Positions 13,000-61,733 of a stretch of DNA of 64,000 bases are shown here, piece by piece (positions within the stretch are counted from its first letter, which is position 1; every line of letters starts with the position of its first letter). The translations under genes were made by a program, and so were the position numbers. The stretch lies in contig DYTN01000004.1 of NCBI GenBank assembly GCA_020725925.1, forward strand, positions 2,802 through 66,801, in the 5' to 3' direction. Below the pieces are notes generated by a model that saw only the letters and a list, made by a program, of their open reading frames with translations, searched no databases and was not told the DNA's origin. Source of the stretch: Methanobacteriota archaeon (GTDB taxonomy: Archaea; Thermoplasmatota; Thermoplasmata; UBA10834).

Positions 13000-13059
13000 G
13001 CGTGCCGAATCCTTTAAGAGCGCTGACGGCTTCCGCTGAATGGTCTAGGAGGACTTTCT

Positions 13060-13536: not shown

Positions 13537-13599
13537 GCCCGCGGCGACTCCGGAAATCGGATTCTCCACAGAGCTCGTGTCTCAAATGAGGGAATCCTT

Positions 13600-30866: not shown

Positions 30867-31264
30867 AGAAAATGACACGGAAAGGAATTGTTCCCTTCGA
30901 CTTCTTCGTATTCTAGTTATGGTGCGGTCGACCAATCCGCTTTCGATTGCAGCGGCAATCTTCCTGCGGCGCATGAATCTAGGGGTTGGTCGATTATCTC
31001 GTGTCCTAGACCTCTGCAACGATTCTAGCGCGCTAATCGGGGCCTCCCTCAGCCTTCGAACAGATCAAGCCAGTGTCTCAAGAAATGAGGGAAAAACTGC
31101 AATTTACATGAACGGTCAAAGGGGCTTATGTCCTTCACCTGGCACATTCTTGACATACTGGCTTCGTACCTCCCATAAAGGTTAATATGGGACGGCATCG
31201 TTGGTGGCGCTCACGAACAGAGCAAGGTTCCAGATCGACATTCTTATCAGAGCCAGGGGGAAGC

Positions 31265-32293
31265 ATGCTGAAGAGCGGTTTCGTGCCGAGGATTCTGTCC
31301 TGGAACACCACTAACAGATGTAATCTCAAATGCGCTCACTGCTACATGGATGCGAAGGACAGAGCGAGCACTAACGAGCTCACGACTGATGAGGGCAGGA
31401 AGCTCATAGACGAGATTTCTGAGGTTTCCAAGTGCGTCCTCGTTCTCAGCGGCGGGGAGCCGATGCTGAGAGCAGACATCTACGAACTGGCTGCTCACGC
31501 GAGATCCAAAGGACTCCGGGTCGTCATGGGCACGAATGGTACCTTGATTTCAAGAGAGGCTGCGAGGAATCTAGTCTCGGCAGGAGTATCCAGAGTCGCC
31601 ATATCCCTGGACGGGTGCGATGCGGCAATGCACGACTCGGTCAGGAGGGTTGAGGGTGCGTTCGAGGCCGCAATTGCGGGTGCGGAGGCCTGCAGGACCG
31701 CAGGTCTCGAGTTCCAGGTGAACTCGACGGTTTTCCCCCACAGCTTCAGTAGGATTCCTGACACTATCAGGACCGCGAAGAGAATCGGTGCGGCGGAGTT
31801 CCACCTGTTCTTTCTCGTCCCCACTGGTAGAGGTGTGTCCTTGAAGGACGTCGGCCCTTGGGACTACGAGAACATGCTACACCAGCTCTTGCCTCTTGAG
31901 AAGGAGGTCGGAATCCACATAAAGCCGACCTGCGCTCCGATGTACATGCGGGTATCCAAGCAGAGAGGAGGGAACGCCACAGAGAGATACTCACGGGGCT
32001 GTCTGGCCGGGATTTCGTACTGCAGGATAAGTCCGGAGGGAGGGGTTTACCCGTGCCCGTACCTGCCACTGGAGGTCGGCAGCGTTCGATCCCACAGCTT
32101 CGGAGAGATCTGGTTCAACGCACCCTTGTTCGCCGACCTGAGGAACTTCTCAAAGCTCAAGGGGAAGTGCAGAGTGTGCGAATTCAACGATATCTGCGGT
32201 GGCTGTAGGGCGCGGGCGTACGCGCTCGCTGGCGACGTTCTCGCTCCTGATCCGTGGTGCGTTCATGTGCCCAAGAGGAATCGAAATGGTTAG
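31265..32293 (+). CDS. Radical-SAM/SPASM enzyme of the AhbC/AhbD (NirJ-like) family: Fe-coproporphyrin III synthase or heme synthase
   Basis: CNLKCAHCY (CxxxCxxC) radical-SAM cluster motif and a C-terminal Cys-rich SPASM region (CRVCEFNDICGGCRARA), in an ahb/hem cluster. The start is more likely the MLKSGF methionine than the ORF-track start at 31187. Confidence 0.7.
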   Translation: MLKSGFVPRILSWNTTNRCNLKCAHCYMDAKDRASTNELTTDEGRKLIDEISEVSKCVLVLSGGEPMLRADIYELAAHARSKGLRVVMGTNGTLISREAARNLVSAGVSRVAISLDGCDAAMHDSVRRVEGAFEAAIAGAEACRTAGLEFQVNSTVFPHSFSRIPDTIRTAKRIGAAEFHLFFLVPTGRGVSLKDVGPWDYENMLHQLLPLEKEVGIHIKPTCAPMYMRVSKQRGGNATERYSRGCLAGISYCRISPEGGVYPCPYLPLEVGSVRSHSFGEIWFNAPLFADLRNFSKLKGKCRVCEFNDICGGCRARAYALAGDVLAPDPWCVHVPKRNRNG

Positions 32294-33248: not shown

Positions 33249-33863
33249 ATGATAGATTTCAATGGGAGGTTGGTGATCATCATCGGAGGAGGGCAGGTTG
33301 GTCTCAGGAAGGCGAGTGTCTTCTGTCGCGCAGGAGCTGATGTGCGCGTGATCAGCAAGGATTTCGCGAAGGGATTCAAGAGACTCCCCGCGAAGCTTGT
33401 GAAGGTCAGGAACTTCGAAGACCTGGGGTTGCTGAAGCATGCGTTCCTCGTGGTTGCAGCCACGAACGACCATGACCTGAACTCGCAAATCAAGCGCTCG
33501 TGCCGAGAGGCGGGAGTGATGTGCAACTCAGTGGACGACGAGGATTCAGATGTGTACCTTCCCTCAATCATCGCGCGAGGTCCCCTGACCATCTGCATAA
33601 GCACCCGTGGTGCGAGCCCAGCCCTTTCAAAGAGAGCCCGAATCATGATAGAGGAATTCATAGGGCCTGAATGGGGAAAGATGGCCGTCCTGTTGGCCGA
33701 GGCTAGAGTGATGCTCAAAAGCTCAATTGCCGCTCAGTCGTCGAGGAAGGAGGTCCTGAGTGGGATCCTCAATGACAAGGCAATATGGTCACAGCTGAGG
33801 AAAGGAGACATCGCAGGGGCGCGACGAACGATAACCAAGAGGCATCTGGAGGGAGGCAAGTGA
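33249..33863 (+). CDS. Precorrin-2 dehydrogenase / sirohydrochlorin ferrochelatase (SirC/CysG N-terminal domain-like)
   Basis: NAD-binding motif LVIIIGGGQVGLRKASVFCRAGADVRVI. At 204 aa the size is typical for SirC. Confidence 0.65.
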   Translation: MIDFNGRLVIIIGGGQVGLRKASVFCRAGADVRVISKDFAKGFKRLPAKLVKVRNFEDLGLLKHAFLVVAATNDHDLNSQIKRSCREAGVMCNSVDDEDSDVYLPSIIARGPLTICISTRGASPALSKRARIMIEEFIGPEWGKMAVLLAEARVMLKSSIAAQSSRKEVLSGILNDKAIWSQLRKGDIAGARRTITKRHLEGGK

Positions 33864-35119
33864 TTGGAGTCATAAGCGCTCACATAACGCACAGATGGGT
33901 CGACATCAAGAAGCTCGAGTTGTACGCAGCGAAGGAGGCAAGATCCCTACTCTCGTCAATAAAGGACCTCGATTCGGTGTGCGAGTGTGCTCTGCTCAAG
34001 ACGTGCAACAGGGTGGAGATATATGTTGCGACCACAAACCCCGAAAGGACCAAAGCTGCACTCGAAGCAATGATTCTCAATTTCGTCGAGGGTTCTGAGA
34101 GAAACCATGTTCAGTTCCTCTCCTCGACGGGCTCTGTCAGGCACCTCGCAAGGGTCACCAGCGGGCTCGACAGCATGATCGTGGGCGAGGACCAGATTCT
34201 TGCACAGGTGAAAGAGGCCTACGAGTTCGGGATCAAGGAGGGCACGATCGGTAAGACATTGGGGGAGGTTTTCCGAAAGGCGATCAGCATCGGGAAGAAG
34301 GTCAGAACAGAGACTGGTGTGAACAAGGGTGGCGTGTCGATCGGGTCTGCAGCTGTCGAACTGGCCAATGGGCTGCTCTCGTCGCTCCAGAACCGTACCA
34401 TACTCGTTGTCGGTGCGGGAGAAGTCTCCAGACTAGTGGCCAGGTCCCTCGCAAGTCACAATGTCAAGGCAATTTTCGTGGCCAACAGAACCTACGACGC
34501 CGCCGAGCAACTAGCCGCTGAACTCGGTGGAGAAGCAGTCCACTTCGACAGGCTCCCTGAGCGCCTTAGGATGAGCGACGTCGTGATCTGTGGAACCTCT
34601 GCGCCACATGTTGTCATTGACAAATCGGATCTAGTTCGTGCATTCGGCCCCGCTGGTCCAGCAACCCCTCTCCTGATGATCGACATAAGCAACCCCAGGA
34701 ACATCAGCGAGGATGTCCTTGAGCTGCCGAACGTCCAGCTTCACGACATGGACGGCCTCAAAGAGGTTGCGGAGAGGAATGAGGAACGAAGGAAGAATGA
34801 AATCGAGAGGGCCGAAAAGACGATTGACTCGGAACTCGAGCTGATGAAGTCCAGGTTCGAGGAAAGGAGAGACTCCGAGGAGACAGTCCGACTCCTCCAC
34901 ACATATGTGGGCCGGATAAGGGAATCCGAGTATGCAAAAGCAGTGAATAAGCTCAACGGTGTCGACGAGCGCCAGAAGAAGGTGATGTACGATATGCTGA
35001 TGTCCGTCACGAAAAAGATCCTCGCCGAACCCACGGAGAGCCTCAAGGAAGCCTCCAAGAACGGAGAGCAGGAACTCATCGATGCAACGGAGAAGCTCTT
35101 CAAGCTCAGGAGGAGATGA
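33860..35119 (+). CDS. hemA: Glutamyl-tRNA reductase
   Basis: Catalytic Cys motif LLKTCNRVEIY, NADPH-binding LVVGAGEVSRLVARSL, and a C-terminal dimerisation helix. A GTG start at 33860 overlaps the sirC stop codon (the ORF track is open from 33785). Confidence 0.8.
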   Translation: MIGVISAHITHRWVDIKKLELYAAKEARSLLSSIKDLDSVCECALLKTCNRVEIYVATTNPERTKAALEAMILNFVEGSERNHVQFLSSTGSVRHLARVTSGLDSMIVGEDQILAQVKEAYEFGIKEGTIGKTLGEVFRKAISIGKKVRTETGVNKGGVSIGSAAVELANGLLSSLQNRTILVVGAGEVSRLVARSLASHNVKAIFVANRTYDAAEQLAAELGGEAVHFDRLPERLRMSDVVICGTSAPHVVIDKSDLVRAFGPAGPATPLLMIDISNPRNISEDVLELPNVQLHDMDGLKEVAERNEERRKNEIERAEKTIDSELELMKSRFEERRDSEETVRLLHTYVGRIRESEYAKAVNKLNGVDERQKKVMYDMLMSVTKKILAEPTESLKEASKNGEQELIDATEKLFKLRRR

Positions 35120-36104: not shown

Positions 36105-37373
36105 ATGTCGAAATCCGAGAAGCTCTACGAGAAGGCTAAGGAACTGATGCCTGCGGGGGTCTCGAGCCCGGTGCGAGCATTCGAGCCCTATCCGAGATAC
36201 ATAGAGTCGGCAAAGGGCTCAAGGATGAGGGATGTTGACGGGAAGGAATACGTTGACTATTGCATGGCATTCGGGCCGCTCATACTTGGTCACTCCCCAC
36301 CGAACGTCGTGACGGTAGTGAAGAAGATGCTCGAAAAAGGGAGTGTGTTCGGCGCGCCAACAGAGCAAGAGATCGTGCTCGCCGAGAAGATACGCAGTCA
36401 TTACCCAGCAGCAGAGATGCTGAGGCTCGTGAACACAGGAACCGAAGCCACCATGCATGCGCTCAGGTTGGCCAGGGGTTTCACGGGGAGAAAGAAGGTC
36501 GTGAAGGTCGAGGGGGCGTACCACGGAGCCCACGATGCCATGCTGGTCAAGGCAGGCTCGGGAGCGTTGACGCACAGCGCGCCCAATTCCCTCGGCGTGC
36601 TTGAAGACGTCGCGAAGCATACCATGCTTGTGCCATACAACAACTCAAGGGCTCTGCGAAATGCGCTGAAAGGCGAACATGGTGACGTCGCAGCGATGAT
36701 CATCGAGCCCGTGCTAGGCAATGTCGGTCCAATCCTGCCCGAGGAGGGGTACCTACAAGAAGTCAGGGAGATCACCTTGGACGAGGATGTTCTCCTGATT
36801 CTCGACGAGGTGATCACGGGCTTCAGGCTGGGCCTCGGAGGCGCACAGGAGATGTTCGGCATCAAGCCCGATCTGCTCACTCTGGGCAAGATTGTTGGAG
36901 GAGGATTCCCAATAGGCGTGTTTGGCGGGCGGAGGGAAATAATGGAGAAGATCTCGCCTCTGGGGGGAGTGTATCAGGCAGGCACGTTCAGCGGCAACCC
37001 GATCAGCGTCTCGGCCGGTCTCGAGACCATACGCACAATGGAAAAGAAAGGATACGCCTCTCTCGAGAGACGGTCGAGGAATCTTCGAGAGGGCTTGGAG
37101 GACGTGCTAGAGCGCTCCTCGCTGGGATATCAGGTTTCGGGCATAGGCTCTATGTTCCAGATATTCTTCACAAACGCAAAGATGCGGAACTGGGACGATA
37201 TACGGACTTCGGACACGGCGAGATTCATGCAGATGTTCCGGCGTCTCTTGGATGAAGGAGTCTATGTGCCGCCGAGCCAGTTCGAGACCAATTTCCTCTC
37301 GACTGCGCACAGTGATGCCGATGTCGAATTCACCATCGCGGCCTATGAAGGGGCCATCAGAGGACTCTCATGA
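36105..37373 (+). CDS. hemL: Glutamate-1-semialdehyde 2,1-aminomutase
   Basis: 422-aa class-III aminotransferase, with GAYHGAHDAMLVKAGSG and LILDEVITGFR around the PLP lysine, in hem context. Confidence 0.85.
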   Translation: MSKSEKLYEKAKELMPAGVSSPVRAFEPYPRYIESAKGSRMRDVDGKEYVDYCMAFGPLILGHSPPNVVTVVKKMLEKGSVFGAPTEQEIVLAEKIRSHYPAAEMLRLVNTGTEATMHALRLARGFTGRKKVVKVEGAYHGAHDAMLVKAGSGALTHSAPNSLGVLEDVAKHTMLVPYNNSRALRNALKGEHGDVAAMIIEPVLGNVGPILPEEGYLQEVREITLDEDVLLILDEVITGFRLGLGGAQEMFGIKPDLLTLGKIVGGGFPIGVFGGRREIMEKISPLGGVYQAGTFSGNPISVSAGLETIRTMEKKGYASLERRSRNLREGLEDVLERSSLGYQVSGIGSMFQIFFTNAKMRNWDDIRTSDTARFMQMFRRLLDEGVYVPPSQFETNFLSTAHSDADVEFTIAAYEGAIRGLS

Positions 37374-39017: not shown

Positions 39018-39802
39018 CGAGGACCATCGCCCTGATGAGGCCGGCGTCATCGCTGGGCGAGTCTGTGCGCTTGGCGAAGGAGAAGGGCTTCTACGTGCTC
39101 GGGGCACCTGTGATCGAGCTGGAGGCCATCGCGAACGGACAGTTCAACGAGTTTGTCGAAAGTCTCTCAAGAGGGTATGTCGACTATGTTGTATTCACGA
39201 GCGCGAATGGCCTGCGGTTTTCGCTCGGGCTCGCAGAGGGATTCATCGGAAAGGACGAGTTCATAGTCCTGCTCAGGAGAGCGAAGGTCGTTGCGATTGG
39301 CGCGAAGACGAGACAGGCGCTGAGCACCGCAGGAGTGAAGGTGAGCCACACGCCAAGCACCTATAGCTCCGAGGGGCTCGCGCATCTCTTCAAGAGGCTT
39401 TCTCCGAAGGGGTCGCGCATCGTTCTGGTGAGGAGCGCGCAGGGCTCAGGAGACCTCGTGCCAGCCCTCGAGGCATTGGGTGCAAGGGTGACGGATGTGC
39501 AAGTGTACAGGGTGAGAATGCCCGGGAGCCTGAAGGACGCGCAGGACTTGGTCAAGAGAGCCGCCAACGGGGAGGTGGACGTATTCTGTTTCACCAGCGC
39601 GATGACAGTGCTCAACTTCCTCGATATCGCACGCTCACTCGGACTCCTCGATGAAGTCATCTTGAAGATCAACCGAGCATGCGTTGCAGCCATAGGCCAA
39701 CCGACTGTGCGAGCACTGAAGAGCAATGGCATGGATGTGGACATAGTGCCTGAGGAACAGACATTCGAGGCCCTCTTGGACGAAGTGGTGAGAAAGGGAT
39801 GA
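39014..39802 (+). CDS. hemD: Uroporphyrinogen-III synthase
   Basis: An ATG at 39014 overlaps the cobA stop (ATGA). A 263-aa HemD-like two-domain protein (VFTSANGLRF ... FCFTSAMTV). The ORF track lists a longer out-of-context start at 38882. Confidence 0.6.
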   Translation: MTRTIALMRPASSLGESVRLAKEKGFYVLGAPVIELEAIANGQFNEFVESLSRGYVDYVVFTSANGLRFSLGLAEGFIGKDEFIVLLRRAKVVAIGAKTRQALSTAGVKVSHTPSTYSSEGLAHLFKRLSPKGSRIVLVRSAQGSGDLVPALEALGARVTDVQVYRVRMPGSLKDAQDLVKRAANGEVDVFCFTSAMTVLNFLDIARSLGLLDEVILKINRACVAAIGQPTVRALKSNGMDVDIVPEEQTFEALLDEVVRKG

Positions 39803-40971
39803 TAATATTCTCGAAAGTTCTCGGGAACAAAGGAACCGTGTATGACGCCCTTCGGGCGGGCGCCGCATGCGGCAGGGATGTACCGGACGACATGATCAGG
39901 TTCTCGAAGGAGCAAAGGCCGGTCGTGGTCTGGAACATCACGAGAAGATGCAACCTCAGGTGCGAACACTGCTACCTTGATGCGAGCGACACTGCCGACG
40001 ACGAGATGTCTCTGGAGGACTTCGGAGAGGTCGTCAACGACCTCGTGAAGTGCGAGGTCCCGCTAATAATATTCAGCGGTGGTGAGCCTCTAGTCAGGAA
40101 GGATTTCTTTGAGATTCTCAAGCTGGTGAAAGATGCGGGTCTCAAGAGCGTCATCAGCACAAATGGTACGCTGATCACGCCCGAGAACGCAGAGCGTCTG
40201 GCGGAGCTCGGCGTGAGATACGTTGGGGTGAGCCTCGACGCCGCATGCCCCGAGATCCACGACAGGTTCAGAGGCGTTAAGGGTTCGTGGGAGAAGGCCG
40301 TCGAGGGGGTCAGAAACGCAAAGACCGCGGGCATACGAACGGGCCTCAGAATAACCGTTACCAAGGACAACTACAGGGAACTTCCTGCACTTCTGGACCT
40401 CGCTCTCCGAGAAGGCGTCGAGAGGTTCTGCGTGTATCATCTGATACCAACAGGCCGTGGAGCATCAATGATAGCGAAGGATCTGGACAAGAACGAGCGC
40501 GAGTGGGTCCTCTCATTTCTCTATGAGAAGTCCATTGAACTCAGAGACAAGGAGATCGAGATACTCACAACGGATTCACCGATGGATGGCGTCTACATCC
40601 TGGAGCGGCTCAGGCGAGAGAACCCGGAGGCGTATGCCGATGCGCGAAAGCTCCTCGCGATAGGCAGCGGCTGTACAATAGGCACTAAGATTGCCAACAT
40701 AGACTACAGGGGCGATGTGATGCCATGCCATTTCGCGCCGGAAATCGTGGTCGGAAACGTCCGTGAGAAGACTTTCGCCCAGTTGTGGATCAAGGAACCA
40801 TGCAATGAGCTCACTGAGCTCAGGGAGATTTCTTCCAGACTGAAGGGGAAGTGTGGAAGGTGCGATTATCTTGATGTGTGCAGAGGATGCAGGAAGAGGG
40901 CACTGTTTCACACTGGCGACTGGAAGGGCGAAGATCCCTCTTGCTTGTATGACCCACCGGCACGGGTTTGA
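39799..40971 (+). CDS. Radical-SAM/SPASM enzyme of the AhbC/AhbD (NirJ-like) family, second paralog
   Basis: MIIFSKVLGNKGTVYDALRAG N-terminus, CNLRCEHCY cluster motif, and a C-terminal SPASM Cys motif CGRCDYLDVCRGCRKRA. Confidence 0.7.
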   Translation: MIIFSKVLGNKGTVYDALRAGAACGRDVPDDMIRFSKEQRPVVVWNITRRCNLRCEHCYLDASDTADDEMSLEDFGEVVNDLVKCEVPLIIFSGGEPLVRKDFFEILKLVKDAGLKSVISTNGTLITPENAERLAELGVRYVGVSLDAACPEIHDRFRGVKGSWEKAVEGVRNAKTAGIRTGLRITVTKDNYRELPALLDLALREGVERFCVYHLIPTGRGASMIAKDLDKNEREWVLSFLYEKSIELRDKEIEILTTDSPMDGVYILERLRRENPEAYADARKLLAIGSGCTIGTKIANIDYRGDVMPCHFAPEIVVGNVREKTFAQLWIKEPCNELTELREISSRLKGKCGRCDYLDVCRGCRKRALFHTGDWKGEDPSCLYDPPARV

Positions 40972-43724: not shown

Positions 43725-44696
43725 TCAGGAGAGGAATCCCGACAGCGCGATGCCTGCCGTTAGGAGCACACCGCCAAACAAATGGATCTGAACGGTCATG
43801 GCCTGCGCAGGCAGCAGCGCGCGGACATTCTCTGGGTTGCTAAGAACTACCTTCGAGGCCTTGATAGCCAGTGGGATGGTGAGGAAGAACAGCAGGGCAA
43901 GAGCTGGCAACAGAGAGAAGAGGATCGCGATGGCAGCCCATCCATATGCGGCGCAGAGTATTATCGGATATCCGACGGACGCTTTCTTCCTCCCGAGCCT
44001 CACGACCCAGTGGCGTTTCCCCACGCTCGCGTCTGCTTCCATATCTGGGAACTGGTTGATGTAAAGGACCAGGGCGATGAGGAGGCCGATTGGAACACCG
44101 GCAAGAAATACGGGAACGTTGACGTCTCCAGTGAGCACGATGTACGTGCCGAGGACCACGAGAGGGCCGAACCCAAGACATACCCCGATCTCGCCAACCC
44201 CGCGTCGAGCAAGGTTCACCTTCGGGGCGATGTACAGGAAGCCCAGCAGCCCGCCAGCGATCCCAACGGGCAGGATCCACCAACTGATAGTCCATGCCAG
44301 ATAGAGGCCTATCGCGGCACCTATGCCGAAGCCAGTCAGGGCGGCCAGAAAGACCTTCTTCGGTTCGAGTACCCCGCCTATCAGGAAAGGAGTCCCTCCG
44401 TTGAACTGCGTCCTCGCGTTGTTTATTGCGTCCCCGCCGTTTTCGTAGTCGAAATAGTCGTTGATCATGTTAGTTCCTGCGTGCAGAGACACGGTCCCTG
44501 CCATCGTCACTAGGAGCAGGACGAGATCGAAAACCCCTCTCTCCCAGTACACGAGGGCGGCGCCGAAGAGCACTGGCACTATAGCCGCCGTGAAGAAGGG
44601 AGCTCTGAGTTCGAGCAGCCAGATCTTCACCATCCTTCCAAACGAAGCAGGCTCCTTTGCCCCGGCCGAGGTACCTTGTACGTTCTGTCCGTCCAT
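43725..44696 (-). CDS. UbiA-family prenyltransferase (MenA-like polyprenyltransferase)
   Basis: At least eight TM helices. The Asp-rich motif GTNMINDYFDYENGGD is the UbiA NxxxDxxxD box. High GC. Confidence 0.7.
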   Translation of the reverse strand: MDGQNVQGTSAGAKEPASFGRMVKIWLLELRAPFFTAAIVPVLFGAALVYWERGVFDLVLLLVTMAGTVSLHAGTNMINDYFDYENGGDAINNARTQFNGGTPFLIGGVLEPKKVFLAALTGFGIGAAIGLYLAWTISWWILPVGIAGGLLGFLYIAPKVNLARRGVGEIGVCLGFGPLVVLGTYIVLTGDVNVPVFLAGVPIGLLIALVLYINQFPDMEADASVGKRHWVVRLGRKKASVGYPIILCAAYGWAAIAILFSLLPALALLFFLTIPLAIKASKVVLSNPENVRALLPAQAMTVQIHLFGGVLLTAGIALSGFLS

Positions 44697-46520: not shown

Positions 46521-47465
46521 ATGACGCACAAGGAAAGGTGTCGCAAGTTCAGAAGAGTGGGCGAGATTCTGGAAATACTGAAGAGCGAGCGCAGAATCGC
46601 CTCCACCAGCCCCTTGAAGATGAACGAAGCAGATGTTTGCGAATTCATCGGCTGGTGCAAAAGGAACCTCGACTCGACGACAGCTGCGCACTATCTGAAG
46701 TTCCTGGACGAGATACTTCAGTCGGTCGGGAACAACTCAGTCTTGATGGTGAAGACGAAGCGGAAGAGCCTGATACCCCATGTCACACCCAAATCCGTGC
46801 GCACAATCCCCAATGACAGCCTCCTAACCATTCTGTGCGGTAGCTACCGCTTGGGCGATGAGTGGTGGGACGAGGTGGGAAAGACTGCTGCGACTCTCTA
46901 CTTCCACACCGGATTGAGGGTATCTGAGCTCAGACTCGCCAAAGTCGGCGACCTTGACCTGACGAGAGAGCTGATTGTGGTCAGCAGTCCTAAGGGCATA
47001 GGCAGGTGGACGAATGGAACCGAGTCTTCTCCAATCATGTCTGGGGTCGAGAACCTGCTTCGGAACTATCTGCGCATCAGGGAGCACGTTATCGTGCGAT
47101 CCGGAGCAAAACCAGCCAACGTGGAGCCCCTCTTCCCTTATATGACGAAGAAAGGCAGGGTCGGCTACTGGTCTCAGGTCATGTGGGGGCGGCTAAAGCG
47201 GCAGATGGAACTTGCGACAGGCGTCAGGTTCCGCTGGAAGGACTTCCGGCCAACGTACGCACAGCGGCTGAAGGATCTCGGGGCCCCTATCGAGGCGGTG
47301 TCCAAATGCCTCCGGCACAAGGACACCGGCACCACAGAGGAGTACTATGCGCGTATCCGCAGTGAGACCGCGTTCTCCCAAGTGAGACGGGTATGGGAAA
47401 CACCCGTTGCGGAATTTCAATCCGGCGAAATTGAAAATCAGCCAGATAGGATGGTAATGGGGTAG
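46521..47465 (+). CDS. Tyrosine recombinase / phage-type integrase (intact)
   Basis: C-terminal catalytic region with Arg (GLRVSEL), FRPTYAQRL, and LRHKDTGTTEEYYARI containing the terminal Tyr nucleophile. 314 aa. The stop codon overlaps the tRNA-Pro 3' end. Confidence 0.8.
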   Translation: MTHKERCRKFRRVGEILEILKSERRIASTSPLKMNEADVCEFIGWCKRNLDSTTAAHYLKFLDEILQSVGNNSVLMVKTKRKSLIPHVTPKSVRTIPNDSLLTILCGSYRLGDEWWDEVGKTAATLYFHTGLRVSELRLAKVGDLDLTRELIVVSSPKGIGRWTNGTESSPIMSGVENLLRNYLRIREHVIVRSGAKPANVEPLFPYMTKKGRVGYWSQVMWGRLKRQMELATGVRFRWKDFRPTYAQRLKDLGAPIEAVSKCLRHKDTGTTEEYYARIRSETAFSQVRRVWETPVAEFQSGEIENQPDRMVMG

Positions 47466-47531
47466 GCCGGATTTGAACCGACGGTCACGTGGTCCCGAAC
47501 CACGGATCATACCAAGCTAGACCACTACCCC
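47458..47531 (-). tRNA. tRNA-Pro (anticodon CGG), 74 nt, no encoded CCA
   Basis: The reverse-complement strand folds. Acceptor GGGGTAG/CTACCCC. Anticodon stem CGTGG/CCACG with loop TTCGGGA and anticodon CGG. T-arm GTCGG-TTCAAAT-CCGGC. Discriminator A. The D-stem has one mismatch and a 9-nt loop. Confidence 0.65.
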
Positions 47532-54210: not shown

Positions 54211-55566
54211 GTGATGGTCGATATCAAGGGACTGGCCGAGAAGACGGTCCGCCAGGCCATGAAGCTGGGGGCGACCCACTGCGATGTGATGGTCGCGGAC
54301 GCGAAGTACGTGTCAGCAGAGATAGAGAAGGGTTCCATCAAAGCTGCGAGCATGCTGTTCGACCCGGGAGTGGCCGTTCGCGTGTTCATGCAGGGTTCGC
54401 AGGGGTTCTCGTCCTGCACAGGCCATGACGCGAAAGCTGTCTGCAGGGCAGTAGAGCTGGCCGTCTCACATGCCAAGGCTGGCACGCGGGATCCTGATTT
54501 CAGAGACCTCCCGTACAAGTCGCCGGGGGGCAGAGCTTCGGGCCTGTTCGAGAAGAGGCTCGCGTCAACGAGCGTCGATGAGATCGTGTCCATGGCCATC
54601 GCCCTCGCGGACAAGGCCGGAGACGACAAGAGGATCGTGGGCGTGAACGCCTCGGTGAACGTTGGGACGGGGACCTACGCCCTCGCGAACAGCAATGGCA
54701 TCTCGCTGTCCCAGAGGCTCAGCTCGTTCGAGCTCGGCGCAGAAGCGGTTGCCAGGTCGGGCGACAAGATGTTCTCGGGCATGGACGGCTTGTGGTCCAG
54801 GAGGCTCGACAGAGCCGCATTGGGGAGGGTCGGAGAGAGCGCGAAGGAGCACGCGCTCCTGGGATTGCGGCAGGTGAAGATCCCGACGGGCGACCGGCCT
54901 GTCGTGATGGATCCGTTGGCGTTCGGTTTCATCCTATCGTCGGCCATCGGCGGGGGAGTGAATGCCGAGAGCATCCAGAGGAAGAGGAGCTACCTCACAG
55001 GGAAGCTGAACCAGGTCATAGGCTCTGACGGCCTCACAGTCATCGACGACCCGACGATCGAATGGGGGCCTGGAAGCTACGCGTTCGACGGCGAGGGAAC
55101 GCCAGCCCGCAAGACCTTGATCGTGGATGGCGGCCTCCTGAGGTCGTATCTTTACGACAGCTACACCGCTGGCAAGGACTGCGTCGAGAGCACTGGCAAC
55201 TCGTCCCGCGGGTCTTCCCTGTGGAGCTTCAGGCATGTGCCGTCGATTTCGAGCTCGAACCTGGTCGTCACACCGGGTGACAGCACTCTGAAGGAGATGG
55301 TCCGGGAGACGAGCAAGGGAGTGTACCTGAGGGTCACGTTCGACTCCCCGAACCTTGCCACCGGCGAGTTCTCAGGTCTCATGATGGAGAGCTTCAGGAT
55401 AGACAAGGGTGAGCTGGGGCCGTCCATCCGCCAGTCTACCATTGGCATCGGCGTGGTAGACATGCTCTCCAGGATTGACATGATCGGCAAGGACCCCAGG
55501 GAATCGTTCGGTGTGCGAACGCCTGCGGTCAGGGTCTCCAAAGCCAGGATAGCGGGCTCAGGCTAG
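54211..55566 (+). CDS. TldE/PmbA-family protein
   Basis: 451 aa of the TldD/PmbA fold, lacking the metal-binding motif. It follows the TldD-like gene directly. Confidence 0.7.
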   Translation: MMVDIKGLAEKTVRQAMKLGATHCDVMVADAKYVSAEIEKGSIKAASMLFDPGVAVRVFMQGSQGFSSCTGHDAKAVCRAVELAVSHAKAGTRDPDFRDLPYKSPGGRASGLFEKRLASTSVDEIVSMAIALADKAGDDKRIVGVNASVNVGTGTYALANSNGISLSQRLSSFELGAEAVARSGDKMFSGMDGLWSRRLDRAALGRVGESAKEHALLGLRQVKIPTGDRPVVMDPLAFGFILSSAIGGGVNAESIQRKRSYLTGKLNQVIGSDGLTVIDDPTIEWGPGSYAFDGEGTPARKTLIVDGGLLRSYLYDSYTAGKDCVESTGNSSRGSSLWSFRHVPSISSSNLVVTPGDSTLKEMVRETSKGVYLRVTFDSPNLATGEFSGLMMESFRIDKGELGPSIRQSTIGIGVVDMLSRIDMIGKDPRESFGVRTPAVRVSKARIAGSG

Positions 55567-58500
55567 AAGTCGTATTTCTGCCCGCAGATCGGGCACGCGC
55601 CCGTCCTCTTGGCGCAAGACAGGTGCAGCTGCCCCCCGCATCTGCAGTTCACGATGTCGAACCCTGGCTTGATCCTGCCCTGGCATGAGATGCATCTGGT
55701 GACATCGGTCGCCCTGCCAAGCTTGAACGGCGGGCCCGCAGGGAACACGTTGACCGTGTCCTCGATCTCGAAGCTCTGGACCCTGCCGTCGAGCTGTCTC
55801 CTGGCCGAGATTGTGAGCTTGATCGGCACGCTCCCGCTCTGCCTCGGGACCAGCCTGAGCACGATGTTCGCCTCGGCCCCCGGCTTGAGAGCAGCGACGG
55901 CCGGCGTAGCCTTCGTCTCGAAGTCGCCTGAGACGGCCACGGACACATCTCTCGCAAGGGCCCTGCCCGTGTTCCTGACGGTGAGGGTGAGCTCGCCATC
56001 GGCCCCGTCCTGCAGTCCCGTCGCCACCATGGTTCCCATGATCTCCGGCGAGTACGCCTCTGCAAGCTCCTTTGCAGTGTCCAGCGCCTCTGCCACGAGC
56101 TCGATGGCGGAGTCGTAGTCCTTCTCCCGCTCGATCTCGGCCATCGCTATGAGCCTCTCCGGCTCCCTCTTCGATAGCCCGAACCTGCCCAGGGCCTCCA
56201 TGGAGCTCTCAGCGGCGATCGAGATGTCCATGTACTTCTTGTGCAGCTCCTCGACCCCGAGCATCCTCTGGTCCGCGTCCATCAGCAGCTGGAACGCGAC
56301 CGCGGTGTCTCCTGCGTCCGCGGCCCCCTTGGCTTGCTCGACCATCCCCTCGACGACGCGCACGGAGGCTCCGAACTTCCGGAGCGACTCAGTTTTATCG
56401 TTGATCTCGTCCACGAGGTTCGTTATCTTCTTGGCCATCAGCCCGAGGCAGGTATCCCTGCATGCCATGGCCTGCTGGTACGCGAAGTCCCAGAGCTTCT
56501 CCTGGAAGGAGGTGTTCGCGACCTCGAGCAGGTCCTCGCACGCCTTGGCATTGACTCCCATCTCCTTGGCCTTGGCGATCATCTTCCTGTTCTGGTTCAT
56601 TATGTCCTCGATGGAGTCCTCGAACAGGGTGACGGCCTTGCTCGAGGCGCGCCTGAGGGCGTCCCTGAACTTCGCGAACTCGTGCGCCGCGAGGTACTCC
56701 TGCGCCATGTCGAGTATCTCGTCGCACTCGGCGGTGTCTATCATGACCTTCTTGAGCCTTTCGATGCGCTCCCTGGTCGCGCTCAGCTCTATCCTGCAGC
56801 TGTCCAGGTTCTCCCTGATGGCATGGAGCTCGTCCCCGCTCTCTATCGCAGCGGTCATCGCGTCCACGTACTTGCCCTCTCGGAACAGCCCCTCGGCCCG
56901 GGTCACGAGGTCCGCCAAGCGATCGCTCTTTATGCCCTCGGCGGTCGCGTCCGCGAGCTTCTTCTTGGCGAGGTCTACTGCGCGGGCGCTTATGTCCCTC
57001 TGCAGCTCCGCGCGCTCCATCTCCATCTCGCACTTCATCGCGAGCTTGAGGGCGTCCTGGTACCTTCCCTCCCTGAACGCCTGGAATCCGTCCGCGACGC
57101 AGCTCCCGGCCATGCCCACCTGGAGCCCTTCGGACTCGGCCTTGTCCAGCCTGTCCTTGAACCGCTCCAGCGTGCCCCAGATCCTCGACTTGGTGACTTC
57201 GGACGAGGCCTCTGAGGACTTGCGCGCGAGTTCGAGGGCTATCGCGTACTGATGCCTAGTCAGGGCCTCCACTGCCTGCTCCAGGTACTCGCGGGACTTG
57301 CCGACATCCATGTCCAGCGTCTCGGCGTCCTTGAGGTTGTTGCGCGCCACCCTGATTTCCAGGGCGGCCTGGGAGCTGAGGTTCTTGACATGGTTGATGT
57401 CGTCCTTCGCGGACGAGACGCACCTGAGGGCCTCGACGTAGCCTCCTGTTCTGGCAAGCTCCATCGCCTTCTCCGCCAGCTTCTCCGGCCCCGTGGTGTC
57501 GACACCGACGTTCCTCGCATCCGTCAATAGCCTCTGGAGGTCATGGGTCATCACGGCGATGGCCGACACGATGGCTGCCCTGGTCTCCTGGTCGCACTTC
57601 TTCGCAGCCGCAAGGGCCTCGTCGTAGTTCTTCTGCTTCATGGACTCCTTGGCACGAGTCAGGAGCGCGAGCGGGCTGTCCATGTTGATGCCATTGACTA
57701 TCGCGAGGTCCATGCTCTCCTTTGAGCTGAGTATGAACTTGGCCGCGAGGTACATCGCGAGGCTCTTTTCCGTCTCGGCCATTGTGCTGTCGACCAATCC
57801 CTCTGCGGCATCCACATCTCCTGACACGAACGCCGTTCTGGCCTCCTCCAGCCTCCGGAGGAGGGATGAGACATCCGTCCTCGTCTTGCCCGCCTCGGAA
57901 ATCAGCTCCTCGGTCCTGCGTATCTTGCCTTTGATCGTGTCGAACCTGGTTATGTTGGACTGGAGAGCCGTCTTCGTATCCCTGATGATTCTGAAGGCAA
58001 CACCGTAGTCTCCCGCCTCCGTCTTCCCGCGGACCTCCTTGAGCTGCAGCTTGGCCTCCTCGACGTCCATGCCTATCGTCTTGGCCTCTTCCAGGGAGTC
58101 CTTCACAGACGACAGCTCCGCCTGGACGAGCTTGGTCATCATCTCGTCCGCGTGCTGGATTATCTCTCTCGCCCTGGAGGTGGCATCCTCGTAGACCCTC
58201 CGCGCCAGCGCATCGTTTGCGCGCGTCAGGAGTATCTCCAGGTCCGCGACGTCCCCGTTCATGGAGCGGAGGGCGGCGATCTTCTCGTTCGCGCTCGCGA
58301 TCACCCGGTCGCACTCAGCCTGGCCGATGCCCTCGATCTTGTGCGTGACCTGCTGCAGCAGGTCGTGGGCCTTGTCGAACTCGAACCCCGCGACGTGCTG
58401 CCTTGCCAACGTGATGAAATCAGAAACCTCGCTCAGGGCTTCCCCGCTGTAGCCCTTCACGAACTGGTCTATGCTCTGCAGCCTGTCGCTCATGAGCCTC

Positions 58501-60071
58501 GTCATGGCCATGCCGCCGGCTTCCTTGGAGGCCTCAGCGAGCTTAATGCTCTCGCCCATGTCCTCCTTCGAGAGGGCGTCCAGCGCCTTCTGCAGGATGC
58601 CCTCGGCCTCCGTCATGTCCGCGCCGATCTGCTTGCCCAGCTTGACCGCCTTGTCCGAGACCTCGATGGCGCCCATCGCTGCGTCGTGGGCGATCTTCTT
58701 GACCTCTCCCAGCCCGCGCTTGGTGAGGTCTGTCGTGGCCTCATAATCCCTCGCCTCGAAGGACTTCCTGGCCTGTGTCAGCATGCCCTTGACCGAGGTC
58801 GGGTCGGCACCGAGGTCGACCGCGAACTTCACAGCCTTGGCGAGATCGACTATCTGGTCCCTTGCCTTGTAGAACTTGTCGAGGGCCGAGTCGACCTCCT
58901 TCTTGCTCTGCGCGGCGTAGTCCATGGCGTCCTCGAACTTGCCCGCCTTCAGGTTGTCCCTTGCGGTGTTGAGAAGGAGGATGGCCTTGGTCATGTCCAC
59001 GCCCACCTTCTTGGCGAGGACGAACTTGTCCCTGGCCTCGGATATGACCTGGAGCACGGAGTTGAACTCCGCCTGATGCACGCGCTCGTGCGCTGTGTTC
59101 AGCGCGTGGAGCGCCTCGATGTACTTCTTCTCCTTGAGGGCGCTCACTGCCTGGTCGAGGAGCTGCTGCGGGACCGTGACATCCTCCTTCGCGGCCTTCA
59201 TCTTCCGGATGTTCTCCCTGGTCTCCCTGGCCATCTCCTGGAACCTCGCGGAGATGGAATTCTCCCCCTCCGCCTCGGCCTTCTTCGCGTACGAGAGTGA
59301 TTCCTTGAACCTGAGCGACCCGAGGGCGGTCTTCGCCCGCTCCACATGCGACTCGACCCGGGACATGTCTGCACCGAGCTCCGCCCCCGCAGAGACGAGC
59401 TCCTCTGCCCTCGATATGGTGGAGTTGATCCTCGACTTCAGGTCCTCCCCGGCACCGTCCAGGACCTCCTTTATCTGGCTCATGCATGATTCGTATTCCT
59501 GGCTCTCCAGGGCGGACTTGGCTCTCGAGAGCTGGTCCTCGAAGATGGTGACGTCCTCCCCGAAGTCCTTCGCCTGCATAATCGTCTCCTGGGCCTGCGA
59601 GAACAGTTGTGAGAACAGTTCGTGGACCGCCCTCTCAGCGACGTCGTACGCGTTCTTGGCGTACTTCATGGCGCCCTCGAGGTCCTCCGCAACGACCCGC
59701 TCCTTGCTCCTCTCCAGCAGCTCGCGGGCGTTCTTCGCCTCTCCACCGGAGCCCTGCATGAGCGCGAGCAGCGCCTCGACGGAGTCGCCGACATCGCCCA
59801 GCTTGCGGACATAGGCTGCACGGGCGGCCTCCATCGCCTTCCGGACGTGCCCTAGGGCGGTCTGGTAGTCCTTGGTCGCCATGGCGGCGTCGAAGTCCCT
59901 CTTCGGCCTCTCGACCTCTGAGAGGTCCGCGTCGATCTCCCTGCAGGTCTTCAGGAACTGCTCCAGAGCCTCGAGCTCCTTCTCAGCAAATTCCTTGTTC
60001 CGAGTGGCCTCCTTAGCACGCTCTTCTAGCTGCTTAGCTAACTGGAGGCTCTTTAGGTAGCTTCCCGCCAA
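55563..60071 (-). CDS. Giant alpha-helical tandem-repeat protein (1502 aa) with a C-terminal beta-sandwich (CARDB/Ig-like) domain and a Cys4 zinc ribbon
   Basis: About 15 copies of a degenerate unit centred on [LIV]G[AVM]D[MPTV] followed by helical segments, at roughly 90-aa spacing (LGADMSRV, VGVDMTKA, LGADPTSV, IGADMTEA, IGMDVEEA, VGVDTTGP, LDMDVGKS, MGVNAKAC). C-terminal ELTLTVRNTGRALARDVSVAVSG ... CISCQGRIKPGFDIVNCRCGGQLHLSCAKRTGACPICG. Confidence 0.7.
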   Translation of the reverse strand: MAGSYLKSLQLAKQLEERAKEATRNKEFAEKELEALEQFLKTCREIDADLSEVERPKRDFDAAMATKDYQTALGHVRKAMEAARAAYVRKLGDVGDSVEALLALMQGSGGEAKNARELLERSKERVVAEDLEGAMKYAKNAYDVAERAVHELFSQLFSQAQETIMQAKDFGEDVTIFEDQLSRAKSALESQEYESCMSQIKEVLDGAGEDLKSRINSTISRAEELVSAGAELGADMSRVESHVERAKTALGSLRFKESLSYAKKAEAEGENSISARFQEMARETRENIRKMKAAKEDVTVPQQLLDQAVSALKEKKYIEALHALNTAHERVHQAEFNSVLQVISEARDKFVLAKKVGVDMTKAILLLNTARDNLKAGKFEDAMDYAAQSKKEVDSALDKFYKARDQIVDLAKAVKFAVDLGADPTSVKGMLTQARKSFEARDYEATTDLTKRGLGEVKKIAHDAAMGAIEVSDKAVKLGKQIGADMTEAEGILQKALDALSKEDMGESIKLAEASKEAGGMAMTRLMSDRLQSIDQFVKGYSGEALSEVSDFITLARQHVAGFEFDKAHDLLQQVTHKIEGIGQAECDRVIASANEKIAALRSMNGDVADLEILLTRANDALARRVYEDATSRAREIIQHADEMMTKLVQAELSSVKDSLEEAKTIGMDVEEAKLQLKEVRGKTEAGDYGVAFRIIRDTKTALQSNITRFDTIKGKIRRTEELISEAGKTRTDVSSLLRRLEEARTAFVSGDVDAAEGLVDSTMAETEKSLAMYLAAKFILSSKESMDLAIVNGINMDSPLALLTRAKESMKQKNYDEALAAAKKCDQETRAAIVSAIAVMTHDLQRLLTDARNVGVDTTGPEKLAEKAMELARTGGYVEALRCVSSAKDDINHVKNLSSQAALEIRVARNNLKDAETLDMDVGKSREYLEQAVEALTRHQYAIALELARKSSEASSEVTKSRIWGTLERFKDRLDKAESEGLQVGMAGSCVADGFQAFREGRYQDALKLAMKCEMEMERAELQRDISARAVDLAKKKLADATAEGIKSDRLADLVTRAEGLFREGKYVDAMTAAIESGDELHAIRENLDSCRIELSATRERIERLKKVMIDTAECDEILDMAQEYLAAHEFAKFRDALRRASSKAVTLFEDSIEDIMNQNRKMIAKAKEMGVNAKACEDLLEVANTSFQEKLWDFAYQQAMACRDTCLGLMAKKITNLVDEINDKTESLRKFGASVRVVEGMVEQAKGAADAGDTAVAFQLLMDADQRMLGVEELHKKYMDISIAAESSMEALGRFGLSKREPERLIAMAEIEREKDYDSAIELVAEALDTAKELAEAYSPEIMGTMVATGLQDGADGELTLTVRNTGRALARDVSVAVSGDFETKATPAVAALKPGAEANIVLRLVPRQSGSVPIKLTISARRQLDGRVQSFEIEDTVNVFPAGPPFKLGRATDVTRCISCQGRIKPGFDIVNCRCGGQLHLSCAKRTGACPICGQKYDF

Positions 60072-60231
60072 GGGACATCAAGCTCCATGCGCCAGAGGCC
60101 TGACTCGAAGTGGACCACTGACACTCTTGGACTGAGTTATCATTTTTGTATGCGCATATAAATGTATCGTTTTCTCTATCAGAACTGATACGATTGCCAG
60201 AAGTGCTCACATCCAATGTCCCGAAGCTCTC

Positions 60232-60912
60232 TCACAGCCTTGCCAGCAGGTCCTTGACGAGCGCATTCCCCCTGCGCTCCAGGGCGGACGCCGATGACCC
60301 CAAGGCATCGGCAGCGGGCCGGTCCGTGAGCCCAGCGACGTTGATCCTGACGTTCATCAGCGCTCCCCTGAGGCCGGCATCCGCCAGGAGCACGGCGACA
60401 CCGACGTCGGACCTCGCGCTCTTCTTGCCGATCTCCTCCACCCTTAGCCCCTTGGACAATACCTCGTAGCACGCCTGTGCCGTCCTCATGGGCACCTCGG
60501 CCGCGTGCGCCAACGCGCGCTCGTAGTCATTCGAGGTCTTCCTGGACCGGCTCAGGCCCTTCTCCCTCGCCGCCTTTACGACGAGGTCGTAGGCCTCGGC
60601 ATCCATGGTCGCGAGCCGCACCAGCTCGTCCCTCTTCTCGGCGAACGACCTCCTGAGGTCCTCAAGCTCCAGCCGGTCCGCCTCGTGCTTCCTGCTCTTG
60701 GCGGTGATGGCGCACACCATGGACATGAGCGACGCGGCCATCGCGCCCGCAACGGCGGAGGCGGTCCCTCCGCCCGGCGACGGCTCGTCGCTCGAGAGCT
60801 CCGCGCAGAGGCTCCTGAGGGCGTCGAGGTCCTTCACGCCCAAATTCTCCTCTCCAGGACCTGGTTGCTGGAAAAACCGCCCAGCTTCAGGAACTTGGCC
60901 GCGAGGTCGCAC
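60232..60912 (-). CDS. Formiminotetrahydrofolate cyclodeaminase-domain protein (FtcD C-terminal-domain-like)
   Basis: LCAELSSDEPSPGGGTASAVAGAMAASLMSMVCAIT matches the cyclodeaminase signature (PGGGsasA). The start is uncertain because the listed ORF overlaps the upstream gene by 79 nt. Confidence 0.55.
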   Translation of the reverse strand: MRPRGQVPEAGRFFQQPGPGEENLGVKDLDALRSLCAELSSDEPSPGGGTASAVAGAMAASLMSMVCAITAKSRKHEADRLELEDLRRSFAEKRDELVRLATMDAEAYDLVVKAAREKGLSRSRKTSNDYERALAHAAEVPMRTAQACYEVLSKGLRVEEIGKKSARSDVGVAVLLADAGLRGALMNVRINVAGLTDRPAADALGSSASALERRGNALVKDLLARL

Positions 60913-61733
60913 ACGGCGTCGAGCGGTATGAGGCCGATGATCTCGCTCTCGACCACCTCGACCCCTCTTGCCTCAGCCTCGGCCTTGACCGTCTCGAAGA
61001 CCTTGGAGATTGGGGTGACGGTGTAGTCCGTGAGGTTCATGGACACCTGGACCACGCCCTTCGCCTCCAGGTAGAATCCCAGGGCCTTCACCTTGGGCAT
61101 GCCACCGCTGCTGGCCCTGATCTTCCTGGCTATCTCCTTGGCGACCTTCAAGTCCTTCGAGTCGAGATTGATGTTGAACGCGATCAGAGGCATCCTAGCG
61201 CCCACCGCGATGGCTCCTGCGGTCGGGTGGATCATCCGCGGGCCGTAGTCCGGGTACCTTGATTCGTCCGTGAGGATGGCCTCCTTGAGCACTTCGAACT
61301 CCCCCTTGCGAACGTTCTCGAGGTTGGCCCTCTCCGGCCGCTTGGCCGCGGCCTCGTACATGTACACGGGTATCTTGAGCCCCTTCCCGATGCGCGCGCC
61401 GACCTTGTTGGCTATCTCGACGCAGTCCTCCATCGTGACGCCCGCGATGGGCACGAAGGGCAGCACGTCGAGGGCGCCCATGCGCGGGTGCTCTCCTTCG
61501 TGCTTCGTGAGGTCTATGAGTTCCGACGCGGCCCTCGCGCCCCTGTAGGCCCCTTCCTGGATGTTCTCCTTGCCCCCCGCGAAGGTCACCACGGACCTGT
61601 TGTGGTCGGGGTCCATCTGCACGTCGAGGATCTTGATGCCAGGGACTGACCTTATCGAGAAGACGATTCTGTCGATGACATCCTTCCTGCGCCCCTCGCT
61701 GAAGTTCGGAACGCATTCCACAATCGCGGGCAT
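60834..61733 (-). CDS. ftcD: Glutamate formimidoyltransferase (FtcD N-terminal-domain-like)
   Basis: MPAIVECVPNFSEGRRKDVIDRIV N-terminus is typical of formiminotransferase domains. 299 aa. Confidence 0.7.
   Translation of the reverse strand: MPAIVECVPNFSEGRRKDVIDRIVFSIRSVPGIKILDVQMDPDHNRSVVTFAGGKENIQEGAYRGARAASELIDLTKHEGEHPRMGALDVLPFVPIAGVTMEDCVEIANKVGARIGKGLKIPVYMYEAAAKRPERANLENVRKGEFEVLKEAILTDESRYPDYGPRMIHPTAGAIAVGARMPLIAFNINLDSKDLKVAKEIARKIRASSGGMPKVKALGFYLEAKGVVQVSMNLTDYTVTPISKVFETVKAEAEARGVEVVESEIIGLIPLDAVCDLAAKFLKLGGFSSNQVLERRIWA

Follow-up and report, generated by a model that had tools for sequence, protein, structure and literature searches.

The window analyzed in this study, a 64,000-nucleotide stretch of contig DYTN01000004.1 (assembly GCA_020725925.1), derives from an uncultured archaeon of the Thermoplasmata and carries on its minus strand a giant gene (55563..60071) of 1502 codons plus a stop, read from a TTG start. 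Its product is an acidic protein of 165.2 kDa (isoelectric point [pI], 5.3) that lacks both a signal peptide and a transmembrane segment (maximum KD19, 1.11). The protein consists of a conserved N-terminal segment, a long array of 62-residue helical units, a CARDB-type beta sandwich, and a RING finger, and we tentatively propose that it acts as a scaffold or tether of fixed length.

The original prediction of an open reading frame (ORF) at this position was correct; a protein identical to its product is already on record (P0001), and close homologs share the position of the start codon and the opening MAG(N/S)YLK. The close family comprises 146 matches at 48 to 100% identity, nearly all of them 1498 to 1510 residues long, and is present in 42 GTDB species, all represented by Thermoplasmata or Thermoplasmatota metagenome-assembled genomes. 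An alignment of 117 sequences contains four indel sites across the 1502 residues. The ORF is a genuine gene and is conserved among uncultured archaea of the Thermoplasmata. A literature search found no paper dealing with this protein family, an Rfam scan gave no match, and the PADLOC models for anti-phage defense matched 0 families at an E value of ≤0.01.

Most of the protein is a helical repeat. The original prediction envisaged about 15 copies of a helical unit recurring every 85 to 95 residues; repetition and helicity are both borne out, but the interval and the copy number had to be revised. All eight of the motifs quoted in support of that reading are present, with their G-x-D glycines at residues 233, 357, 421, 483, 667, 856, 920, and 1172, that is, at spacings of 124, 64, 62, 184, 189, 64, and 252 residues, each of which is 62 to 64 or a multiple of about 62 to 63. 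Assumption-free autocorrelation of the family profile gave a peak at lag 62 (z = 11.1; maximum of 200 column shuffles, 4.6) with harmonics at 124/126, 186 to 190, 248, 310, and 374. There was no signal at lags of 85 to 95 or near 34 (z = 1.6 at lag 31, 2.2 at lag 33, and −1.9 at lag 34). A hidden Markov model (HMM) built from nine seed units placed 21 units across residues 13 to 1337 and scored the non-seed part of the protein at 73.8 bits, against 0.3 ± 2.0 bits for shuffled sequences. Family profiles of individual units matched several other units with hhalign probabilities of 82 to 97%. The periodicity is significant by both the autocorrelation and the seed HMM.

On the basis of HMM mapping, autocorrelation, and AlphaFold2 (AF2) modeling, the array of 21 units, each of about 62 residues, extends over residues 35 to 1346 (56034..59969, minus strand, as for all coordinates within the gene). 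Units 1 to 7 start at residues 35, 97, 159, 221, 286, 345, and 409 (high ends in the DNA at 59969, 59783, 59597, 59411, 59216, 59039, and 58847), units 8 to 14 at residues 471, 533, 593, 655, 719, 782, and 844 (58661, 58475, 58295, 58109, 57917, 57728, and 57542), and units 15 to 21 at residues 908, 970, 1034, 1098, 1160, 1222, and 1285 (57350, 57164, 56972, 56780, 56594, 56408, and 56219). The units align nearly without gaps to the consensus xAxExLxxAKxxGxDVxxxExLLExAxxALxxGDYxxALxLAxxA..., in which column 27 is alanine in 75% of cases, column 39 is alanine in 74%, and column 36 is tyrosine or phenylalanine in 74%. Identity between units within one protein is 10 to 24%, compared to 48 to 80% between orthologous units, and TRF detected no tandem repeat at the DNA level, which together indicate that the array is ancient.

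Two AF2 models built with the 117-sequence alignment, covering residues 1098 to 1502 (mean predicted local distance difference test [pLDDT] score, 90.6) and residues 1 to 1159 (mean pLDDT, 83.0; predicted template modeling [pTM] score, 0.33), show the same strict alternation of a 15-residue helix with a helix of 38 to 41 residues. The short helix is flanked by the G-x-D motif, in the loop before it, and by a G-D-Y/F turn after it. A single stripe of conserved hydrophobic or small residues, spaced about three to four residues apart, runs along the entire long helix into the next unit, suggesting that both halves of the long helix are probably buried.

The array is preceded by a conserved N-terminal segment, residues 1 to 34 (59970..60071), recognized by its low entropy and by a helix in the AF2 model. 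Its column entropy (0.64) is among the lowest in the protein, and the motif YLKxxQLxKQLEEKAKEA is retained in orthologs at 19 to 30% identity. In the model these residues form the first half of a 44-residue helix (residues 2 to 45) and have no preceding hairpin on which to pack, making the segment a candidate docking or self-association helix.

The array is followed by a beta sandwich of the CARDB (Ig-like) type at residues 1347 to 1455 (55707..56033), identified by Pfam, AF2, and Foldseek. The CARDB-like domain recognized in the original prediction is well supported: Pfam CARDB (PF07705) matched residues 1351 to 1421 with 28.2 bits against a cutoff of 22.7 (E = 2.3e-6), and AF2 folds the domain into eight strands with a pLDDT of about 90, an Ig-like fold. 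Foldseek searches with the C-terminal model retrieved the CARDB domain of Pyrococcus furiosus PF1109 (3idu/2kl6) with a probability of 1.00, as well as TRAP-beta and complement MG domains, and matched no part of this model other than the beta domain. Sequence and fold thus both resemble those of PF1109, but the domain here is intracellular in our reading, has a helical array before it and a RING finger after it, and is basic (pI, 9.5).

RING fingers are a hallmark of eukaryotic ubiquitin ligases. The last 47 residues (1456 to 1502; 55566..55706), which the original prediction had taken for a zinc ribbon, are instead a binuclear RING finger of the C4HC3 cross-brace type, as shown by its ligands and by Pfam and Protein Data Bank (PDB) matches. 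The ligands C1460, C1463, C1476, C1478, H1483, C1486, C1493, and C1496 are spaced C-x2-C-x12-C-x-C-x4-H-x2-C-x6-C-x2-C, with C-P-x-C as the last pair, and all eight were invariant in a set of 20 and in a set of 33 diverse sequences, the latter at 29 to 53% identity. Eight invariant ligands imply two zinc sites, whereas a zinc ribbon has one, formed by two CxxC knuckles on beta hairpins; this, with best matches to RING families, rules out a zinc ribbon. Scanned alone as a 49-residue domain, the finger belongs to Prok-RING_1 (PF14446; 31.6 bits; cutoff, 29.1), whereas in the full-length scan the same model stayed below its cutoff, at 23.7 bits. Among the 33 diverse members, 32 matched Prok-RING_1 and 29 matched zf-RING_2, while Zn_ribbon models matched one or two. 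The family RING profile aligned over its full length to the RING-H2 domains of Arkadia and RNF165 in the PDB (E, about 3e-6), and the AF2 model contains the beta-beta-alpha elements of the fold. The small RING protein encoded in the ubiquitin/E1/E2 operon of Caldiarchaeum subterraneum (PMC3082918) has the same type of ligand set, C4HC3 with x4-H-x2-C. The finger shares its eight-ligand cross-brace with Prok-RING_1 and the RING-H2 ligases but differs from these and from the Caldiarchaeum protein in its fusion to a 1450-residue scaffold, in the absence of adjacent genes for activating enzyme (E1), conjugating enzyme (E2), or ubiquitin-like protein (Ubl), and in a very short second loop of six residues.

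The 62-residue unit is not represented by any entry in Pfam, NCBIfam, or the PDB. Searches of Pfam and NCBIfam with the full protein, single units, and distant relatives gave no above-threshold match for the repeat (the window protein matched only SAXB in NCBIfam, below threshold), the full-length sequence retrieved nothing from the PDB, and Foldseek found no significant match in the PDB for the 1159-residue helical model (best E = 0.46). Some homologs have a precomputed match on record, mostly faint, to DUF8042 (PF26154), a family of which our literature search found no mention. To this extent the unit is unrecognized, as originally predicted, but the further statement that it is not a tetratricopeptide repeat (TPR) was too strong. 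The central 33 residues of the unit, positions 15 to 47, appear to form a helix-turn-helix hairpin with a weak TPR-type pattern: an aspartate in the loop, a helix A with a small packing residue, a G-D-Y turn, and a helix B opening with xxAxxxxxxA. The unit profile aligns over these positions to consensus TPR (CTPR) proteins such as 8bu0 and 1na0 with a summed E value of 2.4e-8, at only about 7 bits per repeat, and hhalign matched it to the canonical TPRs of another window protein with 63% probability (P = 7e-5), over 22 columns only. Matches to Pfam TPR_2, TPR_12, and ANAPC3 were all weak and below threshold (TPR_2, 14.0 bits with a cutoff of 27, and TPR_12, 14.3 bits with a cutoff of 30.1, for the full protein; 17.9 bits for the best TPR score of a single unit), and some homologs were already labeled “TPR repeat protein” by their source pipelines (JGI). 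The unit falls outside the TPR family both by model threshold and by period, which is 62 rather than 34 residues; its helix B, of about 40 residues, continues into the next unit, and no structural match to TPR superhelices was found. The sequence pattern is best captured by describing the unit as a hairpin derived from the TPR, with helix B lengthened by about 28 residues.

Three-helix rods provide a second comparison. Spectrin units have 106 residues and three long helices, and the Ebh rod of Staphylococcus is built of FIVAR-GA three-helix bundles of about 63 residues each. The array described here may resemble both in being an elongated series of successive three-helix bundles joined by uninterrupted helices, with a set number of modules. 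There is, however, no sequence or Foldseek similarity to either; the geometry of our array comes from predicted secondary structure, and spectrin and Ebh lack a RING. The Pfam Spectrin model found no match at an E value of ≤1, and its unit of about 106 residues differs from ours of 62, so that the original exclusion of spectrin stands.

The unit defines a large family, in keeping with the earlier suggestion that it might be new. A search with the unit profile over 1.84 billion representative proteins, clustered at 50% identity, found at least 1412 clusters at an E value of ≤1e-3 and 144 at ≤1e-30. Except for two short fragments binned as Planctomycetota, all members with a source name are “hypothetical proteins” of Thermoplasmata or Thermoplasmatota. 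Complete genomes bearing the gene include CP070732, CP070736, CP070748, OY970070, and CP070672. Repeat-bearing proteins range from 282 to 7686 residues and contain as many as 57 matched stretches, a maximum that rises to about 70 when the profile is iterated. The arrangement of N-terminal motif, about 21 units, beta domain, and RING is common to dozens of clusters. In 31 clusters with 21 to 36% identity to the window protein, nearly all of the listed matches are single BLASTP high-scoring pairs that cover almost the whole length, and the N-terminal motif and the beta domain lie a median of 1342 residues apart (interquartile range, 1332 to 1346). Array length is thus held to about 1% at this level of divergence and is under strong constraint. 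Such near constancy at low identity is unusual for a repeat protein and suggests that physical length matters to the function, as it would for a ruler, strut, or tether.

Other parts of the architecture vary. Some orthologs, of about 1443 residues, are RING-less: about 9 of the 31 deep clusters stop after the beta domain, as does the 1445-residue ortholog in a syntenic locus, L050. Further variants include forms of about 3100 residues that share the Ig-plus-RING head, proteins in which a beta domain recurs every 505 residues or so, and giants with no head. In P0195, a metagenomic protein of 2083 residues, a signal peptide, a Gly-rich beta-helix-like region, and Big_7 and PKD domains outside the cell are connected through one transmembrane helix to an intracellular part with a CxxC...CxxC knuckle and 14 units of 62 residues. 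P0213 joins an array that looks, by eye, like canonical TPRs to 62-residue units, and the paralogs of the P0187/P0179 class have a C-terminal region that appears by eye to be roadblock/LC7-like, followed by DUF5915. Pfam searches with distant relatives and their nonrepeat segments found only CARDB, DUF5915, PKD/Big_7, C1_2, and subthreshold TPR and YfdX.

Upstream of the start codon, a 160-nucleotide gap after the FTCD_C gene holds a promoter module that is conserved in an alignment of 18 loci. Its core (60156..60169, minus strand) consists of an invariant CGATAC, resembling a TFB recognition element (BRE), and a TATA-like box, ATTTATAT. Just upstream of the core is the palindrome TATCAGTTCTGATA (TATCA-N4-TGATA; 60177..60190, minus strand), of which ATCA and TGATA are invariant in all 18 loci, including L040, where the known upstream genes were not detected. 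This palindrome is likely to be a transcription factor operator. A conserved Shine-Dalgarno-like GGAGC (60082..60086, minus strand) lies 10 nucleotides upstream of the TTG start, and a weak TTG or GTG start is likewise conserved across the 18 loci. The conserved promoter module and start suggest that the giant gene has a transcript of its own, is probably under regulation, and is weakly initiated.

In the window clade the gene order is Hel308, Cgi121, FTCD_N, FTCD_C, and the giant gene, with two TldD/PmbA genes, HAL, an OB-fold ChsH2 protein, and a thiolase converging from the other side. This order recurs in nearly all of 42 related loci, where flanks are covered. The giant gene and the second TldD/PmbA gene (54211-55566, plus strand) meet tail to tail, sharing 4 nucleotides at their 3' ends (55563-55566), and in related loci they likewise converge, with no more than a few bases between them. 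The listed ORFs for FTCD_N (60834-61733) and FTCD_C (60232-60912) overlap by 79 nucleotides (60834-60912), and the downstream gene probably starts later than listed.

Deep orthologs have other neighbors. In four divergent loci (L044, L045, L047, and L049), whose SMC proteins are about 52% identical, smc-scpA-scpB lies directly upstream on the same strand with gaps of 88 to 135 nucleotides, and TATA-like boxes are present in the gaps after the ScpB gene. In two other loci the ortholog is divergent from a topoisomerase I gene; in L050, Cgi121 lies upstream and the OB-thiolase pair downstream; and in two further deep-ortholog loci the neighbor genes are unrelated. No SMC gene was found in the window or in the 10-kb flanks of the 42 related loci, and no E1, E2, Ubl, or JAB gene occurs in the 51 neighborhoods examined. 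The context hints at information-processing neighborhoods. Other observations concern individual loci. The SMC gene of L045 (2272-6441) holds an intein (Intein_splicing inside SMC_N) and encodes 1389 residues, compared to about 1196 in sister loci. A small GTPase gene of the Arf/Ras/Roc type is found 4 to 6 kb downstream of the ortholog in three clade B loci (L045, 17769-19248; L047, 16695-17288; L049, 18379-20284), accompanied by a DUF7121 gene in two of the three. In L043, a 1650-residue protein with no Pfam match (12624-17576, minus strand) converges on the ortholog P0125 and by eye contains TPR-like repeats and a series of CPxCG zinc knuckles.

Elsewhere in the window, a second giant ORF (13600-18060, minus strand), also with a TTG start, encodes 1486 residues with about 30 canonical 34-residue TPRs (TPR_1, E = 4.8e-134). 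Beyond the TPRs come a nonrepeat region, a stretch that is charged and of low complexity, and, at the C terminus, a Cys-rich finger (RRCLFHGG...CQKCKAILCKECVRGSDRCPRCN). The window thus holds two proteins in which a zinc finger closes a long helical array. The region from about 20000 to 47500 has a G+C content of 0.49 to 0.59, compared to 0.62 in the flanks, and ends at a tyrosine integrase gene (46521-47465) abutting tRNA-Pro(CGG) (47458-47531, minus strand); on these grounds it is probably an integrated island. The region carries a DNA methylase-Mrr fusion (27028-28563) and a heme-pathway-like set comprising a glutamyl-tRNA reductase (33785-35119), a class III aminotransferase (36105-37373), and two radical-SAM/SPASM proteins (31187-32293 and 39799-40971). 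The gene at 43725-44696 encodes a UbiA prenyltransferase.

Taken with the length constraint, the architecture suggests to us a model that falls a little short of being probable: that the protein is a fixed-length, cytoplasmic, acidic scaffold or tether of 165 kDa, specific to the archaeal phylum Thermoplasmatota, with an N-terminal docking helix and an Ig-plus-RING head. In this model, the long helices seen in the AF2 predictions would bridge successive hairpins, the two halves of each helix belonging to adjacent bundles. The array would then be an uninterrupted chain of small three-helix bundles and would form an elongated strut, tens of nanometers in length, instead of a compact superhelix of the TPR type. 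The free N-terminal half-helix could dock to one partner or to another copy of the protein, while the head, held at a fixed distance, might bind a second partner, mediate self-assembly, or recruit a conjugating enzyme. Each unit would offer its own conserved surface for further partners.

Proteins of comparable layout are known. Listerin (Ltn1) is an elongated molecule whose helical-repeat body ends in a RING at the C terminus and bears a conserved docking domain at the opposite, N-terminal end. Vps8, Vps11, Vps18, Vps39, Sea4, and alpha-COP (PMC4678705) are likewise long alpha-solenoid proteins that end in a RING. Like these, the window protein combines a helical-repeat body of roughly 1000 to 1500 residues with a small domain and a C-terminal RING. 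The resemblance is confined to architecture: the helical parts showed no homology and are built from different repeats. The window protein also lacks a beta-propeller, and its lineage is Thermoplasmatota rather than Asgard archaea or eukaryotes. A helical-repeat scaffold with a RING is of a known kind, and the 62-residue unit and the unusual conservation of length are what is new here.

Several considerations weigh against the scaffold model. The rod geometry is drawn from secondary structure and hydrophobic pattern alone, the long AF2 model having a pTM score of 0.33, and a TPR-like superhelix with protruding helices is possible. The neighborhoods differ between clades and give no consistent clue to a partner. 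The polar design of the 117 orthologs counts in favor of the model, with net charges of about −56 on the rod and about +5 on the head, but deep relatives do not keep a positive head (18/31), which rules out a conserved basic head acting as a polyanion binder.

The RING raises the question of whether the protein is a true E3 ligase in the manner of Listerin, Bre1, or TRIM, its array binding substrates or a large complex and its RING recruiting an E2-like enzyme charged with a Ubl of the SAMP or eukaryotic type. The finger itself speaks for this: its profile covers all ligands in matches to the RING-H2 ligases Arkadia, RNF165, RNF126, and RNF4 (E = 3e-6 to 5e-4), the Prok-RING_1 and zf-RING_2 models recognize most diverse members, the eight ligands are invariant and end in a C-P-x-C pair, and the C4HC3 pattern with x4-H-x2-C is of the same type as that of the Caldiarchaeum operon RING (PMC3082918). 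The spacing between ligands 4 and 5 is, however, four residues, compared to two to three in canonical E2-binding RINGs, and orthologs that lack the RING keep the remaining architecture, at least one of them (L050) in a syntenic locus. The lack of the RING in these orthologs favors a core function as a scaffold and, together with the absence of E1, E2, Ubl, and JAB genes from the neighborhoods, makes an obligatory E3 role less likely; we regard the ligase explanation as unlikely overall. Slightly less probable again is a plain, long adaptor of the TPR family, a conventional superhelix with a peptide groove whose constant length is a by-product of slow evolution. The TPR-like signature in each unit, the weak Pfam matches and JGI labels, and the apparent joining of both repeat types in P0213 are what this explanation would lead one to expect, but the period, the 40-residue helix B with its hydrophobic stripe over the full length, and the lack of any TPR match at threshold or by Foldseek are not, and array length is preserved to about 1% in orthologs at 21 to 36% identity while related paralogs span 282 to 7686 residues.

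Gene context suggests a further alternative, an accessory of chromosome organization or DNA transactions working with the SMC-ScpAB condensin or with DNA topology enzymes. The position of the gene directly after smc-scpA-scpB, opposite topoisomerase I, or, in the window clade and L050, behind Hel308 and Cgi121 would fit such a role. The SMC linkage is nevertheless limited to one clade, and the TATA-like boxes in the gaps make an independent promoter likely, which together weaken the case for membership in an SMC operon; the window clade, moreover, has its own conserved promoter. A rod as strongly acidic as this one argues against DNA binding along its length, and since synteny of the whole region is high within each clade, the adjacency may simply be inherited. 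We therefore consider this role improbable. CARDB stands for “cell adhesion related domain found in bacteria,” and such domains are mostly extracellular, as is the PKD/Big_7 region of the distant relative P0195, all of which might suggest a secreted or surface adhesin. The absence of a signal peptide and of any transmembrane segment excludes this for the window protein, and in P0195 itself the repeats are on the cytoplasmic side of the single transmembrane helix. We also take the invariant zinc-binding cysteines of the RING to imply a reducing interior, and thus a cytoplasmic protein, leaving an adhesin with the slightest of chances.

The findings describe a family that is large, syntenic within each clade examined, and entirely unannotated, and the profile of its 62-residue unit can be used to annotate hundreds of giant “hypothetical” proteins. 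They also place a RING at the end of a giant archaeal scaffold, outside any ubiquitin operon. We know of no RING-based modification or assembly pathway in Thermoplasmatota. In its boldest and rather doubtful form, the scaffold model would make this protein the founding member of a cytoskeletal or ruler system found throughout the Thermoplasmatota, in which new TPR-derived three-helix modules form a fixed-length strut like that of spectrin or Listerin and the RING head serves as an E3 or as an assembly node. If so, these archaea would possess both a new element of cell architecture and a RING-based pathway of modification or assembly, and paralogs of up to 7686 residues, with about 70 units, would be longer builds on the same principle. 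The protein is a candidate component of archaeal cytoskeletal or quality control machinery.

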